From Escherichia coli (GTDB lineage: Bacteria; Pseudomonadota; Gammaproteobacteria; Enterobacterales; Enterobacteriaceae): DNA of 64,000 nucleotides. Location: the NCBI RefSeq assembly GCF_045037415.1, contig NZ_CP173438.1, one strand, 5' to 3'. Position numbers and translations under genes: made by a program. The notes under the pieces were generated by a model, which did not search any database, was not told where the DNA came from, and saw nothing but the letters and a program-made list of their open reading frames with translations. This document shows positions 1,888-49,579 of this stretch, piece by piece. How positions within the stretch are numbered: position 1 is the first letter of the stretch; every line of letters begins with the position of its first letter.

Positions 1888-2082
1888 GTGAAAAAACTTC
1901 TCTTAGCTGTCGCGTTCTTCACGCTGGCAGGCTGCACACATTCGACATACACCGAAGCGACTCGCGCTGACGGCAGCAGTATTAAACACGTGATGATCGC
2001 GCCGGGTACGAAGATTACTACTGCGAACGGTGGTTGTATTGATTCAACCGGGGCAGAGGCTTCATGCCTTGGTGGAAAATAG
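1888..2082 (+). CDS. small lipoprotein (64 aa, lipobox LAGC), possible spanin-type lysis accessory protein
   Basis: Signal peptide MKKLLLAVAFFTLAGC; last gene of lysis cassette. Confidence 0.45.
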   Translation: MKKLLLAVAFFTLAGCTHSTYTEATRADGSSIKHVMIAPGTKITTANGGCIDSTGAEASCLGGK

Positions 2083-2141
2083 GGTAATTTACTTTAACGA
2101 GAGGCCGCCTTTTTGTTTTAAGGCGGCACACATTCAACAGA

Positions 2142-2402
2142 TTAAGGTAACTGATTTGACCATTTTGTTGCGCGCCAGTTGTTCTGAACCATAATCTTCT
2201 GAAGTATCTCATCTGAAGGCTCTGCTTCGCCGCTTAGCCATTCTCTTAAAGTTGAACAATTTAGATAAGAGGAGTTCGCACGATAAAAAGATACGATGGC
2301 GTCCTCTGATAACTTCTCAGGAAACTTTTTTGGGTCAGCTTCTTTTAATATTACGCTCATTAAGGCTTCAATTTTTTCTCTGTTCATTTTTTGCGTTCTC
2401 AT
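2142..2402 (-). CDS. hypothetical moron protein (81-86 aa) on opposite strand in AT-rich island; weak resemblance to DinI-family proteins
   Basis: ORF track; alternative ATG at 2387; low GC surroundings; antisense to late operon. Confidence 0.45.
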   Translation of the reverse strand: MRTQKMNREKIEALMSVILKEADPKKFPEKLSEDAIVSFYRANSSYLNCSTLREWLSGEAEPSDEILQKIMVQNNWRATKWSNQLP

Positions 2403-2755
2403 GGTTGTTGTTTTTCTGTAATGATATCAATAAGTTCAAGATATATACATATATGGAAAACTTGTTCGGTAGTCTATCGATACAGCACAAAAGGATGGCT
2501 CGCTGCCAAAGTGAAAGCTTACGCTGATAATCAGATACACAAAGCTGATGTATGCAAACAAGTACGCCGCGAGGCTACAGTTGAGTTTGATGAACCTGAT
2601 GCGAGCCCCTAATTCCTGTCCTGAAAGGGAGATAGCCCCCTGGTCGCGGGTCCTTTCCGAAATCCAAAACACCGAGGGTCGGTAGACGCGCAAAAACTCG
2701 CTCGTTTTTAGTATTTTTTCATTTTGGGTATTTCCGGTTCCGGTGAGGATTTTTA

Positions 2756-3322
2756 ATGGCAAGTCAGGCTGAGGTTGCAGCACATTTACTGCTATCTGAT
2801 CGTCGTCTGCGCGATCTCGCAAAACTTCCGGGAGCACCAGTCCCACAAGGACGTGGTGATTGGGAGCTAGACGCATGGCGCCATTTTTATATTCGTTATC
2901 TCCGGAGCAATAGACGCGACACAACTAGTAATGACGAACCGGAAGCGGGGGACAATTCTCCCGAAAAAAATCGCGAGCAGTGGCTGAAAAATGAGGAACG
3001 ACAGGAGCGAATCCTGATGGCACGAGTAAAACGCCGCATTCTCGCTAAACGCTACGCGCCAATTGAATTAATTAGCGTCGCTGTATCTCGCGTCGCCGTT
3101 GAATTACGTACCCGCGTCGAGTCGTGGCCACCACGCCTGAAAAAGGTCTGGCCGGAGATGCCGCAAGAGGCGAGCAGTGTATTACGAGAGGAGCTGGCGA
3201 TAGCCTTAAATGAGTTGTCAGACATACGAATCGACTTCAGCGATTACGATGTCAGCGATATCGAACGCGATCTCGACAGGGTTGAATCCCTTGCGCGTGA
3301 CGATACCGATGACGGGTGTTGA
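2756..3322 (+). CDS. terminase small subunit (Nu1-like)
   Basis: 188-aa ORF immediately upstream of and overlapping the large terminase; position and size. Confidence 0.6.
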   Translation: MASQAEVAAHLLLSDRRLRDLAKLPGAPVPQGRGDWELDAWRHFYIRYLRSNRRDTTSNDEPEAGDNSPEKNREQWLKNEERQERILMARVKRRILAKRYAPIELISVAVSRVAVELRTRVESWPPRLKKVWPEMPQEASSVLREELAIALNELSDIRIDFSDYDVSDIERDLDRVESLARDDTDDGC

Positions 3323-5171
3323 GTGGGCTGATAAATATTTTTATCTCCCTGAGGGCTCCAGCCACATCGCTGGGCACTGGACGACTCAGCCGGTCCAGGT
3401 AGTGATGCTCAATATGATGACGAACGACGCGATAAAAATCGTGTCTGTTCGCAAATCAGCTCGTCTCGGTTATACAAAAATACTCGTCGCGGCGCTGCTC
3501 TATTTCGCTGAGCACAAAAAACGTAGTGCCGTGGTCTATCAGCCTATCGATGACGAATCGGATGGATTTGTCGCCGACGAGGTTGACCCCGCTATCGCCG
3601 AAATGCCAGTGATTCAGAAAATTTTCCCCGACTGGGATAAAAGCAACGAGCGTAACAATCTCCAGCGTAAAGAAATGAGCGGCGCGATTCTTGATTTTCG
3701 CGGCGCGAGTGCACCAGGAAATTTCCGGCGACTAACGAAACAGGTTGTCGAGGGTGACGAAGTTGACGGCTGGCCGCTGGAAGTTGCCAAAAAAGGCAAA
3801 GGCGAGGGCTCGCCCATCGAACTGGCGCTCGTTCGAATTAAAGGGGCAGCGTACCCGAAGGCGATTTTTGGTTCGACGCCGACCGTTACCGGCAAAAGTC
3901 ATATCGAAATGCTCGAAGACGCTGCCGATCTGACGTTTCGTTTTTACCTGACATGTCCGCATTGTGGCGAGGAGCAGGTCCTGGTATTTGGTTTCGACGG
4001 TATCGAATACGGCCTCAAATGGGATAACAGCCTGCAGACCAATGAGGCGAAATCGTCGTCCGCGTATTACCAGTGCTGCCACTGCCCGGAACATTTTTAC
4101 TATCGCGATCTCGAAAAAATGGAGTTCGGGGGGCGCTGGATAGCCGAGGACTGCACCTGGACCCGAGACGGCATTCATTTTTTTGATCATGACGGTGGCG
4201 TCGTTCGCGCGCCGAAACACGCTGCGATCGTGATAAACGCCCTGTATTCACTAAACCTCGATGGATGGGGCGAGATTGTCAGCGAGTGGCTGAAAGCGAA
4301 AGGCGACCCGCTCAAGGAAAAGACGTTTCATAACACGACGCTCGGCGAACTCTGGAGCGACGTGGCCAGCGAGCAGCTGGAGCACGATATTCTGGTTAAT
4401 CGCCGGGAAAAATACGCCAGCCAGGTTCCTGACGGTGTTGTTTATATAACCGGCGGCATCGACTCTCAGACGTCCGGGCGCTACGAGTGTTATGTGTGGG
4501 GCTGGGGAGCCGAGGAGGAGTGCTGGCTGATTGATAAAACAATCGTCCTCGGTCGCTACGACGAGGAGGACACGCTGCAGCGCGTCGACGGAGTGATTCG
4601 CAAACAATACCGGCGCAGCGACGGGACCACAATCGGCGTCAGTCGCTGGGCGTGGGATACCGGTGGTATAGATGCGCAGGTCGTTTATAACCGCTCGCTG
4701 AAACTCGGTCCGCTGTGGGTCATTCCAATCAAGGGCGCGAGCTCATACGGCCAGCCGGTCGTAAATATGCCTCGTACCCGTAACGCGAATAAAGTGTATT
4801 TGTCGTTGATTGGGACAGATACAGCGAAAGACCTGCTCGCAATGCGCCTGCAGCTGGAACCCGACTCCAAATCGGCGACACCAGGTGCGATTCATTTTCC
4901 CAACGACGACGAAATATTCAGCACGACAGAGGCAAAACAGCTCGTCTCCGAGGTTCTGATCCCGAAACTCATTAACGGTCGCGTCGTTTATCGTTGGGAC
5001 AACCAGGGCCGGCGAAATGAGGCGCTCGACTGCTGGGTGTACGGACTGGCAGCGCTGCGTATCAGTAAAATTCGTTTCCAGCTCAATCTCGAGACGCTCG
5101 CTGAGCAACGGAAAAAATCACAAAACAAACTGTCTCTCGAGGAGATGGCCAGAATGCTCGGAGGGAGCTAA
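3210..5171 (+). CDS. terminase large subunit (lambda gpA-like)
   Basis: Recalled similarity to lambda gpA, e.g. AVEWAD.. and ACPHCGEEQ motifs (here TCPHCGEEQ), GSTP.V.G. Confidence 0.9.
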   Translation: MSCQTYESTSAITMSAISNAISTGLNPLRVTIPMTGVEWADKYFYLPEGSSHIAGHWTTQPVQVVMLNMMTNDAIKIVSVRKSARLGYTKILVAALLYFAEHKKRSAVVYQPIDDESDGFVADEVDPAIAEMPVIQKIFPDWDKSNERNNLQRKEMSGAILDFRGASAPGNFRRLTKQVVEGDEVDGWPLEVAKKGKGEGSPIELALVRIKGAAYPKAIFGSTPTVTGKSHIEMLEDAADLTFRFYLTCPHCGEEQVLVFGFDGIEYGLKWDNSLQTNEAKSSSAYYQCCHCPEHFYYRDLEKMEFGGRWIAEDCTWTRDGIHFFDHDGGVVRAPKHAAIVINALYSLNLDGWGEIVSEWLKAKGDPLKEKTFHNTTLGELWSDVASEQLEHDILVNRREKYASQVPDGVVYITGGIDSQTSGRYECYVWGWGAEEECWLIDKTIVLGRYDEEDTLQRVDGVIRKQYRRSDGTTIGVSRWAWDTGGIDAQVVYNRSLKLGPLWVIPIKGASSYGQPVVNMPRTRNANKVYLSLIGTDTAKDLLAMRLQLEPDSKSATPGAIHFPNDDEIFSTTEAKQLVSEVLIPKLINGRVVYRWDNQGRRNEALDCWVYGLAALRISKIRFQLNLETLAEQRKKSQNKLSLEEMARMLGGS

Positions 5172-47508: not shown

Positions 47509-49579
47509 TCTGGCCGCGATGCTGCGCCTGCCCGCAAACCTGAAATCGACACAATGGCAGATCCTTGCCGGACCGATTTTGATCCTGTTGATCTTGTCGA
47601 TGATGGTGCTGCCACTGCCCGCATTCATACTCGACCTGCTGTTTACCTTCAATATTGCCTTGTCGATCATGGTGTTGCTGGTGGCGATGTTTACCCAGCG
47701 CACGCTCGAGTTTGCTGCGTTTCCGACCATTCTGTTGTTTACCACGCTGTTGCGTCTGGCACTTAACGTGGCTTCAACCCGTATCATTTTGATGGAAGGG
47801 CATACCGGCGCGGCGGCGGCTGGAAAGGTGGTCGAAGCGTTCGGTCACTTCCTCGTCGGTGGCAATTTCGCTATCGGTATCGTGGTGTTCGTCATTCTCG
47901 TGATCATCAACTTTATGGTTATCACCAAAGGTGCCGGGCGTATTGCGGAAGTGGGCGCGCGCTTTGTTCTCGATGGTATGCCGGGTAAGCAGATGGCGAT
48001 TGACGCCGACCTTAACGCCGGATTGATTGGTGAAGATGAAGCGAAAAAACGCCGCTCCGAAGTGACTCAGGAAGCCGATTTTTACGGCTCGATGGACGGG
48101 GCAAGTAAGTTTGTTCGCGGCGATGCCATCGCCGGGATCCTCATCATGGTCATTAACGTTGTCGGCGGATTGCTGGTCGGTGTGCTGCAACATGGCATGA
48201 GCATGGGGCACGCGGCGGAAAGTTATACGCTATTGACCATTGGCGACGGTCTGGTGGCACAAATTCCGGCGTTGGTGATTTCTACCGCCGCGGGGGTCAT
48301 CGTTACGCGTGTCAGCACCGATCAGGATGTTGGCGAGCAGATGGTGAATCAGCTTTTCAGTAACCCAAGCGTTATGTTATTAAGCGCCGCCGTGCTCGGT
48401 TTACTCGGCCTGGTGCCTGGAATGCCAAACCTGGTATTTTTGCTGTTCACTGCCGGATTGCTGGGGCTGGCCTGGTGGATCCGCGGACGTGAACAAAAAG
48501 CGCCTGCCGAACCAAAACCGGTAAAAATGGCAGAGAATAATTCGGTAGTCGAAGCAACGTGGAACGATGTACAACTGGAAGATTCTCTGGGAATGGAAGT
48601 GGGGTATCGGTTGATCCCGATGGTTGATTTTCAGCAGGATGGTGAGTTGTTGGGCCGTATACGCAGTATCCGCAAGAAATTTGCCCAGGAGATGGGCTTC
48701 CTACCCCCAGTGGTGCACATCCGCGATAACATGGATTTGCAACCAGCCCGCTATCGTATCTTGATGAAAGGTGTCGAAATGGGGAGTGGTGATGCTTATC
48801 CGGGGCGCTGGCTGGCAATTAATCCAGGCACTGCCGCCGGAACATTACCTGGTGAAGCGACCGTTGATCCGGCATTTGGCCTGAATGCTATCTGGATTGA
48901 AAGTGCGCTTAAAGAACAGGCGCAGATTCAGGGGTACACCGTGGTTGAGGCCAGCACGGTGGTGGCAACGCATCTTAACCACCTCATTAGCCAGCATGCC
49001 GCAGAGCTGTTTGGTCGTCAGGAGGCACAACAGCTGCTGGATCGCGTCGCCCAGGAGATGCCAAAGCTGACGGAAGATCTCGTTCCTGGCGTCGTCACGC
49101 TTACCACACTGCATAAAGTGCTGCAAAATCTGCTCGATGAAAAAGTGCCGATTCGCGATATGCGCACCATTCTCGAAACGCTGGCGGAACATGCGCCCAT
49201 CCAAAGCGATCCGCATGAATTAACCGCTGTCGTGCGCGTAGCGTTGGGACGGGCGATTACCCAGCAGTGGTTTCCTGGCAAAGATGAAGTCCATGTTATT
49301 GGCCTCGATACACCGCTGGAACGTTTGTTGCTACAGGCGTTGCAAGGCGGTGGTGGACTGGAGCCAGGGCTGGCGGATCGTTTACTGGCGCAAACTCAGG
49401 AAGCGCTATCCCGTCAGGAGATGTTGGGTGCGCCGCCGGTATTGTTGGTGAACCACGCGCTACGACCATTATTGTCTCGCTTCCTGCGCCGCAGCTTGCC
49501 GCAGTTAGTGGTGCTGTCGAATCTGGAACTATCAGATAACCGACATATCCGTATGACGGCGACGATTGGCGGCAAATAA
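47501..49579 (+). CDS. flhA: flagellar export protein FlhA
   Basis: MSNLAAMLRLPANLKSTQW... 692 aa; ORF track starts 25 codons upstream. Confidence 0.95.
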   Translation: MSNLAAMLRLPANLKSTQWQILAGPILILLILSMMVLPLPAFILDLLFTFNIALSIMVLLVAMFTQRTLEFAAFPTILLFTTLLRLALNVASTRIILMEGHTGAAAAGKVVEAFGHFLVGGNFAIGIVVFVILVIINFMVITKGAGRIAEVGARFVLDGMPGKQMAIDADLNAGLIGEDEAKKRRSEVTQEADFYGSMDGASKFVRGDAIAGILIMVINVVGGLLVGVLQHGMSMGHAAESYTLLTIGDGLVAQIPALVISTAAGVIVTRVSTDQDVGEQMVNQLFSNPSVMLLSAAVLGLLGLVPGMPNLVFLLFTAGLLGLAWWIRGREQKAPAEPKPVKMAENNSVVEATWNDVQLEDSLGMEVGYRLIPMVDFQQDGELLGRIRSIRKKFAQEMGFLPPVVHIRDNMDLQPARYRILMKGVEMGSGDAYPGRWLAINPGTAAGTLPGEATVDPAFGLNAIWIESALKEQAQIQGYTVVEASTVVATHLNHLISQHAAELFGRQEAQQLLDRVAQEMPKLTEDLVPGVVTLTTLHKVLQNLLDEKVPIRDMRTILETLAEHAPIQSDPHELTAVVRVALGRAITQQWFPGKDEVHVIGLDTPLERLLLQALQGGGGLEPGLADRLLAQTQEALSRQEMLGAPPVLLVNHALRPLLSRFLRRSLPQLVVLSNLELSDNRHIRMTATIGGK

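Follow-up and report, generated by a model that had tools for sequence, protein, structure and literature searches.

Near the start of a 64,000-nucleotide stretch of Escherichia coli DNA (contig NZ_CP173438.1; the whole stretch, 64 kb, is referred to here as the window), a non-coding gap of 353 bp (2403-2755) lies directly upstream of terS, the gene for the small terminase subunit (TerS) of a prophage. With high probability, positions 2648-2743 of this gap, together with an accessory element at 2936-2944 inside terS, are the cos (cohesive-end) site, at which phage DNA is cut and packaging both begins and finishes, of a temperate E. coli phage of ~42.6 kb with a lambda-type head and a contractile tail. 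The site is very probably real but ordinary: a lambda-like cos that carries a simple cosB in the style of phage N15 and has its own R sequence. Nothing in it is biologically unexpected, and the lambda rule (cosQ, ~30 nt, a 12-nt end) and the simple-cosB plan of N15 are extended to one more lineage. A prophage that is widespread in E. coli (present in 442 of 5,426 complete genomes, for the most part from ST131-type strains) gains a packaging origin, predicted virion ends and a correct name for its small terminase. With cos known, correct linear maps can be drawn, induction becomes detectable from read-start pile-ups, and it can be predicted which cos-carrying satellites or plasmids the terminase could mobilise.

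An earlier note on this DNA had placed a candidate cos region at 2620-2755, and this region does hold lambda-type cos parts, directly 5′ of terS and of terL, which encodes a large terminase subunit (TerL) of the gpA family. The cos assignment is supported by the gene context, the cosQ match, the physical ends of related genomes and the starts of their records, the modular reuse of part of the site, the conservation of the R element and its inverted copy, and the completeness of the prophage. What can be read directly are the elements, their spacing, their conservation in four lineages and the genome ends, physical or as deposited, that fall at the homologous base in related phages. The elements are the following, where bp numbers count from the predicted left end.

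2636-2653, + strand: GC-rich string CCCCCTGGTCGCGGGTCC; only its last 6 nt lie within a recognisable sub-site (cosQ)
2648-2654, + strand: cosQ heptamer GGGTCCT, packaging-termination signal; identity with lambda extends to 2659
2672-2693, no strand: cosN, a predicted 22-bp nicking site with its centre between 2682 and 2683
2677-2688, + strand: predicted 12-nt 5′ cohesive end GGTCGGTAGACG, uncertain by ~1 nt (alternatives 2676-2687 and 2678-2689)
2689-2730, + strand: spacer from cosN to the R element, equivalent to lambda I2; an A5 tract, then T5, T6 and T4 tracts
2731-2743, + strand: R3-like candidate TerS-binding element TTTCCGGTTCCGG, with TTCCGG twice in tandem; bp 55-67
2936-2944, - strand: inverted, rR2-like repeat of the R core within terS, reading GAACCGGAA on the + strand and TTCCGGTTC on the - strand

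The GC-rich segment and cosQ

The GC-rich segment that the earlier note had described ~100 bp 5′ of the small terminase gene is found at 2636-2653 on the + strand (83% G+C), 103-120 bp upstream of the terS ATG at 2756. Its composition alone is unremarkable. G+C content is 64% over 2636-2691, compared with 44% in the non-coding gap and 50% in the window, and this enrichment is modest, the maximum of the 100-nt profile (0.58) being equalled by many coding stretches. The evidence for cos resides instead in sequence and context. Because GGGTCCTTTCCG (2648-2659) is identical to lambda 48473-48484 at 12 of 12 positions, the 3′ end of CCCCCTGGTCGCGGGTCC corresponds to the start of cosQ and not to cosN or cosB, as had been suggested; cosN lies ~30 bp further right, and cosB is located at 2689-2743. 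For the portion 5′ of cosQ (2620-2647), the cos regions of lambda and of the Aeromonas and Vibrio relatives contain no equivalent.

The 12-nt match occurs once in the window on both strands, against ~0.0075 exact copies expected by chance per window and ~2e-5 for the gap on this strand. The heptamer GGGTCCT at its 5′ side is reported to be the 7-bp cosQ (Wieczorek and Feiss, 2001). This site is highly conserved among lambda-like phages and is required for the termination of packaging (Feiss et al., 2015; PMC4669245). GGGTCCT precedes base 1 of the cohesive end by exactly 30 nt in lambda, N15, phiARM81ld, Valp1/K242, ST2-1pr and the IMG/VR contig L047; in the window the best register gives a distance of 29 nt, and an alternative register one of 30 nt. 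Alignment with lambda-like cos sites, the check that had been proposed, thus yields a full cosQ match and homologous ends in relatives. Nor is the similarity weak, as it had been judged: in addition to cosQ and its flank, the left half of the predicted cohesive end agrees with lambda at 5 of 6 positions, and the interval from cosN to terS is 76-78% identical to that of Aeromonas phages, the homologous base being the first of their records.

Genome ends of related phages

The closest relatives of this packaging module are phiARM81ld, the PhAER phages, Valp1, K242 and ST2-1pr, with 38-56% identity in TerS and 43-60% in TerL. A distant BLAST query covering 2560-2800 recovered Aeromonas phages. 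Among their linear records, those of phiARM81ld and PhAER-5 start opposite 2677, and those of PhAER-1 and PhAER-2 end there. The phiARM81ld record begins with GGGCGTTAGACC, and its right end consists of GGGTCCT plus 23 nt ending in GCG; therefore the 30-nt rule holds in this phage.

A physical indication of the ends comes from Valp1, whose record (OR500391.1) reads CTCTTCCGATCT/GGGGCATGACCTCGCAG at one terminus and CCCCACGGGGGCATGACCT/AGATCGGAAGAGC at the other. The non-phage sequence at both termini is presumably Illumina TruSeq adapter, and the 12-mer GGGGCATGACCT is duplicated at the two record ends, each copy flush with an adapter remnant. The presence of the same 12-mer against adapter at both ends points to 12-nt 5′ cohesive ends after end repair. 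In K242, a contiguous relative, GGGGCATGACCT starts exactly 30 nt after GGGTCCT. The Valp1 genome was reported together with the morphology of the virion (PMC11054321); the Valp1 and HY01 papers are silent on genome termini, including the 12-nt ends of Valp1, and the HY01 record, which is without the intergenic cos segment, is uninformative. The same plan extends to other relatives. The N15 record annotates a 12-nt sticky end, the N15 and lambda records both begin 30 nt after cosQ, and the Vibrio prophage ST2-1pr follows by sequence as ACG/GGTGTGTGAACG/CGC. All relatives with experimentally or physically defined ends have 12-nt ends.

Three observations on these records stand apart. The adapter remnants of Valp1 (TTCCCTACACGACGCTCTTCCGATCT at one end and AGATCGGAAGAGCACACGTCTGAA at the other; L008:1-38 and L012:1-41) mean that the "complete genome" length of 42,988 bp in OR500391.1 is inflated. 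The right end of phiARM81ld (L005:1503-1540) contains a strong hairpin (-19.3 kcal/mol, z -4.97), followed by a T-run, that overlaps cosQ, with GGGT of GGGTCCT in the 3′ arm; the structure looks like an intrinsic terminator embedded in cos, and the E. coli window has no equivalent of it. Finally, the Aeromonas phage PCAh2 reads CCCTTGCG/CGTTAGACCC across cos (L004:1480-1515), and the joined ends of phiARM81ld read CCCTTGCG/GGGCGTTAGACCC, so that the first three cohesive-end bases (GGG) are missing in PCAh2, either through assembly collapse at the ends or as a real cosN variant.

The predicted nicking site and cohesive ends

By our count, cosN of the window shows partial two-fold symmetry at 5 of 11 positions per half, and lambda cosN scores alike. 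Across the predicted nicks (slashes) the window reads AACACCGAG/GGTCGGTAGACG/CGCAAAAAC. In alignment, CCGAG/GGTCGGTAGACG/CGCAA of the window stands opposite TTACG/GGGCGGCGACCT/CGCGG of lambda, CTACG/GGTGTGTGAACG/CGCAG of ST2-1pr and CCACG/GGTCTGGGGACG/CGCAA of L047.

The register at 2677 is favored by the symmetry just given and by three comparisons. BLAST places base 1 of the phiARM81ld and PhAER-5 records opposite this position, and here the left half of the predicted end, GGTCGG, matches GGGCGG of lambda at 5 of 6 positions, compared with 4 of 6 after a shift to the left and 2 of 6 after a shift to the right. The right half differs from lambda at 5 of 6 positions, such that 6 of 12 are shared overall. 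In lambda-like phages the cohesive end's left half is under selection, and bp 7-12 are free to vary (Feiss et al., 2015; PMC4669245). A scan of IMG/VR for the cosN type of the window returned 37 loci. In one of these, L047, GGGTCCT plus 30 nt is followed by ACG/GGTCTGGGGACG/CGC, which is the exact lambda register with a 12-mer nearly identical to that of the window, and the right nick is separated from CTATTTATGA by 12 nt, as in lambda. L037 likewise carries a window-type cosN in the lambda register with lambda spacing to CTATTTATGA.

A palindrome, ACCGAGGGTCGGT (2671-2683), was considered as the symmetry centre of cosN and rejected, as it is not conserved in relatives that share cosN and would also put the nicks 5-6 nt to the left of every homologous genome end.

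A probable short cosB with a distal inverted copy

From the right nick to the ATG of terS the distance is only 67 bp, which leaves no room for the R3-I1-R2-R1 array of lambda. A single R-like element was detected, and not the set of R3, inverted R2, R1 and I1 site for integration host factor (IHF) that makes up the complex cosB of lambda, 21 and Monarch. The IHF consensus WATCAANNNNTTR has no match with one mismatch or fewer in 2600-2760, and an I1-type IHF bend site was rejected on this ground. The spacer pattern of CGCA, A-tract, CTC and T-tracts is common to phiARM81ld, K242 and ST2-1pr, and its A/T tracts may substitute for an IHF-induced bend.

The R element is identical in phiARM81ld (bp 54-66), and its counterparts are GTTTCCGGTTTCCG in Valp1 (bp 55-68) and GGTTTCCGGTTTCCGG in ST2-1pr. 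Its 9-nt core TTCCGGTTC occurs twice in the window, at 2732 on the + strand and at 2936 on the - strand. The second, inverted occurrence is at bp 260-268, ~200 bp from the R element, and is read in terS as the codons GAA CCG GAA (Glu-Pro-Glu). Such an inverted copy arises in 1.3% of shuffled terS sequences. The same 9 nt are present in the same frame in phiARM81ld (bp 250-258) and Valp1, with all three wobble positions kept, and the flanking linker residues are not conserved in the three aligned TerS proteins; a synonymous recoding of GAACCGGAA would be GAGCCAGAG. In ST2-1pr an inverted R core (TTCCGGTT) also lies inside terS, ~280 bp from the predicted left end. The R element and the inverted copy are thus conserved in position and sequence in four lineages whose TerS proteins are 38-56% identical.

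This arrangement resembles that of N15, where a simple cosB has one critical R3 at bp 48-59, no IHF site, and, ~200 bp distal in gene 1 (bp 249-260), a matching rR2 in inverted orientation (PMC4669245). In an alignment of TerS proteins, the rR2 codons of N15 fall opposite the Glu-Pro-Glu codons. Judged from its sequence, cosB here is a short, N15-style simple cosB with an R site near bp 50-65 and a distal inverted copy, and cosQ is identical in the two phages. The recognition sequence itself is different: R is TTCCGGTTCCGG in the window as against GGTTGTTGTTT in the region of approximately bp 50-60 of N15 by our reading of the record, in which GAGGTTGTTGTTT at approximately bp 48-60 is read as the published R3 (PMC4669245). 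The architecture of N15 and Monarch is therefore present without their R3/rR2 sequence, and since R is unrelated to that of N15, packaging specificity is expected to differ. When aligned, the two TerS proteins show an identity of only 19%. N15 is a linear-plasmid siphovirus, whereas the E. coli phage is contractile-tailed and uses a tyrosine integrase to integrate.

Relative to lambda, the order and orientation of the sub-sites are the same, as are the location between the lysis genes and terS, the sequence of cosQ and its flank, the distance from cosQ to the nick (29-30 nt here, 30 in lambda) and the CGC that follows the right nick. Downstream there is again a gpA-family TerL, gpW and a lambda-type portal; the adjacent terminase is of the gpNu1/gpA type in that TerL has the Pfam GpA domains and both TerS and Nu1 belong to PHROG 57. 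The differences are the left nick flank (AG here, CG in lambda), the length and content of cosB (~55 bp with one R-like element and neither R2, R1 nor an IHF site, vs. ~120 bp), the start of terS at bp 80 rather than bp 191, and a TerS whose similarity to Nu1 is remote, at the PHROG level.

The likeness is closer to the telomere myophages of Aeromonas and Vibrio, whose cos is of one kind with that of the window and which share the R core (TTCCGGTT), the inverted copy in terS, the A/T-tract spacer and the cosQ heptamer. Their cohesive ends are GGGCGTTAGACC, GGGGCATGACCT and GGTGTGTGAACG, whereas GGTCGGTAGACG is predicted here, and the E. coli phage differs in being chromosomally integrated at tRNA-Leu. 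It could be that the ST131-type prophage and these myophages together form a second simple-cosB lineage with its own recognition sequence (tandem TTCCGG), in which the inverted GAACCGGAA within a variable TerS linker is under DNA-level selection across three host genera; this proposal, drawn from the sequence comparisons above, is tentative and somewhat doubtful. If it is true, the remote inverted site, dispensable in N15, is directly selected as DNA in this lineage, and a TerS-bridged loop of ~200 bp across the terS start is integral, perhaps in an autoregulatory capacity, to the initiation of packaging.

As a side observation on these relatives, Valp1, HY01 and phiARM81ld are described by their authors as protelomerase carriers or linear-plasmid prophages. 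Such are the published descriptions of the nearest relatives of this packaging module, yet the prophage itself has a tyrosine integrase.

Variation and exchange of the cosQ-cosN module

SerU-LTIIb and the IMG/VR contigs L029-L049, all E. coli lambdoid prophages, possess a cosQ-cosN module nearly identical to that of the window (CACCGRGGGTCKGNRGACGCGCAAAAAC) and differ from it in having the cosB and terS of lambda, of N15/Monarch or of another type. The module is joined to a lambda-like cosB in SerU-LTIIb, L030-34, L042 and L044, to a cosB resembling that of N15 and Monarch (GGTTGTTGTTTAAT) in L029, L037, L046 and L049, and to a further cosB type in L047 and L048. Such reuse with at least three other cosB types represents mosaic exchange, as expected of a functional module.

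Variation within the closest copies is slight. The cos core (2640-2699) has a single substitution, at 2664, across 14 IMG/VR contigs and two divergent E. coli copies, among which the length of a C-run just upstream (~2636-2639) also differs. In close E. coli variants (94-97% identical), changes are confined to 2664, 2700, 2704, 2726-2727, 2730 and the C-run, and these substitutions are too few for footprinting.

Two further features adjoin cos in this group. The operon for the LT-IIb enterotoxin is situated immediately 5′ of cos in SerU-LTIIb (L003:2490-2720), and a GATAAT...ATTATC palindrome resides 6-12 bp upstream of cosQ in lambda (GATAATCATTATC; L007:254-266) and in many SerU-type cos regions (L049, L037 and others); the palindrome is absent from the window.

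Model for packaging and alternative explanations

A large terminase of the gpA family predicts cos packaging with 5′ overhangs, as established for the lambda family, and TerL would be the enzyme expected to nick cosN. After excision and replication, a TerS dimer would bind the R element TTTCCGGTTCCGG (2731-2743) and probably also the inverted copy ~200 bp away in its own gene, and this binding would position TerL (3309-5171) on cosN. TerL would then nick the two strands at points 12 bp apart, the top strand after ~2676 and the bottom strand after ~2688, to leave the 5′ overhangs GGTCGGTAGACG. Packaging would proceed rightward, the terS end leading the way into the head. Once translocation has brought the terminase to the following cos of the concatemer, both cosQ (GGGTCCT) and cosN would be needed for the terminating cut. 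The exact nicks, the binding of TerS to R and to the inverted copy, and the activity of the prophage are modeled on lambda and N15.

Several observations weigh against the cos assignment or its details. The sole phage record with an identical sequence in this region, ON470624 (27 kb), does not have cos at its end; like its sister records, it is a fragment (20-27 kb in this group) whose ends fall in ImmA or within terL. None of the 14 IMG/VR contigs with the exact cos ends there (in each, ~350 nt or more lie between the site and the end of the locus as fetched), and a second IMG/VR scan, anchored just inside the predicted end, found no contig starting at the cos end. TerS, which had been called Nu1-like, is linked to lambda Nu1 through PHROG 57 and matches no Pfam family, Nu1 included, at E≤0.001; against PDB sequences it gives noise only (E>0.5), with no solved structure matched. 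The inverted copy is coding (Glu-Pro-Glu), so selection at the protein level could explain part of its conservation. Lastly, the distance from cosQ to the nick is 29 nt and not 30 in the best register, the 30-nt rule alone leading to 2678, and the bases to the left of the top-strand nick are AG (2675-2676), not CG. In lambda-like phages, the 5′-CG-3′ dinucleotides that flank both nicks show high conservation (Feiss et al., 2015; PMC4669245). In the window CG is present on the right (2689-2690), and the nearest CG on the left is 2 nt further out (2673-2674). The left flank is GG or AG in SerU-type relatives and CG in L047 and ST2-1pr. In view of the 29-nt spacing and the AG flank, the ends are stated as 2677 and 2688, ±1 nt.

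The spacing and the flank open a substantial, if minority, possibility for the details of a true cos, namely that it is cut at other positions or with another overhang: GGGTCGGTAGAC (2676-2687), GTCGGTAGACGC (2678-2689, with 30-nt spacing) or a 13-14-nt end, CG/AGGGTCGGTAGACG/CG. In addition to the 30-nt count, the GGG triplet that opens the lambda and phiARM81ld ends starts here at 2676, and the CG...CG flanks are 14 nt apart. The register at 2677 is nonetheless where the left half agrees best with lambda and where BLAST pairs base 1 of phiARM81ld; L047 holds its closely similar 12-mer in the exact lambda register at the same distance to CTATTTATGA, and the relatives with defined ends speak for a length of 12 nt. 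Separately, the site may be cos by descent only, in a cryptic or defective prophage that is no longer packaged. Consistent with this, there is no end-mapped virion genome for this prophage, the deposited "phage" records are fragments, and 408 of the 442 copies have an identity of 99% or more, a pattern that suits clonal (ST131) inheritance over active spread. Such a relic is nevertheless unlikely, given that all modules are intact with no annotated pseudogenes in strain SK1144, that 42.6 kb is a packageable length, that one record bears a virion-style name (vB_EcoM-705R4), and that 42-45-kb versions occur in IMG/VR metagenome contigs.

Two other explanations dispense with cos altogether. The GC-rich segment might be a transcription signal, either a lysis-operon terminator or a regulatory hairpin before terS, as could be imagined from a weak inverted repeat (GAAAGG/CCTTTC, 2623-2628 and 2652-2657), a terminator-like match on the minus strand (2684-2670) and the hairpin and T-run that overlap cosQ in phiARM81ld. 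This is highly improbable. The window segment 2606-2664 folds no better, and indeed worse, than its shuffles (z +1.27), with no stable fold for 2620-2647; terminator-like matches are at background (two found, 1.1 expected from shuffles); the palindrome ACCGAGGGTCGGT is lost in SerU-type relatives with the same cosN; and a search of 2000-3400 at E≤1 gave no relevant Rfam match. Conservation is seen in the primary sequence, with its fixed spacing, and not in base pairing. Headful (pac) packaging with a coincidental resemblance to cos draws on nothing beyond the absence of direct end-mapping for the E. coli phage, and is very unlikely, to the point of being negligible, because TerL is of the gpA family and has both the gpA ATPase and the gpA nuclease domains. 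The gpW, lambda-type portal, gpFI and other lambda head genes, the 12 of 12 match to cosQ at a location where chance would give ~2e-5, and the fixed 12-nt ends of relatives argue in the same direction.

Prophage context and distribution

The window starts inside the prophage, in the Q antiterminator gene, and the genes on either side of the cos gap are as follows.

665-1398: two holins, lysis cassette, 5′ of the cos gap
1401-1880: endolysin, lysis cassette, 5′ of the cos gap
2756-3322, + strand: terS, encoding the 188-aa small terminase subunit; matches PHROG 57 "terminase small subunit" along its entire length (E 3e-39)
3309-5171, + strand: terL, encoding the gpA-family large terminase subunit; matches two Pfam families, GpA_ATPase (E 2.5e-46) and GpA_nuclease (E 5.2e-64)

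Lambda Nu1 also matches PHROG 57 over its full length, and this family is the only link between TerS and Nu1, the direct BLASTP match being marginal (E 6e-4 over 49 aa). By this remote similarity TerS appears to be a distant relative of Nu1. TerL is 44% identical to its counterparts in phage 21 and several lambda-like E. coli phages and 60% identical to that of Valp1. Downstream of terL are gpW, a lambda-family portal, an S49 protease/scaffold, a D-like decoration protein, an E-like major capsid protein and FI proteins, followed by a P2-type contractile tail module (baseplate V/W/J/I, sheath, tube and gpD-like). The prophage is thus a hybrid in which a P2-type tail is combined with head and packaging genes of the lambda type, and its right end precedes yecA at approximately position 23,100.

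In E. coli SK1144 the element extends from an integrase beside tRNA-Leu to yecA, between pgsA and yecA. It comprises ~42.6 kb, which fits a lambda-type head, and its integrase, replication, Q, lysis and full head and tail modules are intact, with no annotated pseudogenes. The segment 2300-3400 underlies the count of 442 complete genomes given above; most copies are at least 99% identical over this query (408 of them), and the strains are often labeled ST131. The same segment is 100% identical to the phage record vB_EcoM-705R4, and versions of the prophage 42-45 kb in length are present among metagenome-derived IMG/VR contigs.

Some features of the annotation and surroundings may be added. RefSeq/PGAP names terS a "hypothetical protein" in all E. 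coli genomes examined, and the annotation of SK1144 includes only a C-terminal fragment of it, 101 aa long (window 3017-3322; L051:13017-13322). Between the lysis cassette and cos there is an open reading frame (ORF) of 86 aa on the - strand (2142-2402; PHROG 5191, function unknown, E 9.5e-62), around which an AT-rich patch occupies 2300-2450 (GC 0.29-0.37); it looks like a moron-type insertion beside cos. A 73-aa ORF with a TTG start (2391-2612, + strand), which ends just 5′ of the GC-rich segment, has no PHROG match and is unlikely to be a gene; in strain L26 and several IMG/VR contigs, CGA takes the place of its TAA stop codon (2610-2612). The remainder of the window (23100-64000) lies outside the phage and is ordinary E. 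coli chromosome (yecA, tyrP, ftnA, araFGH, otsBA, uspC, flhDC, motAB, and cheA onward).

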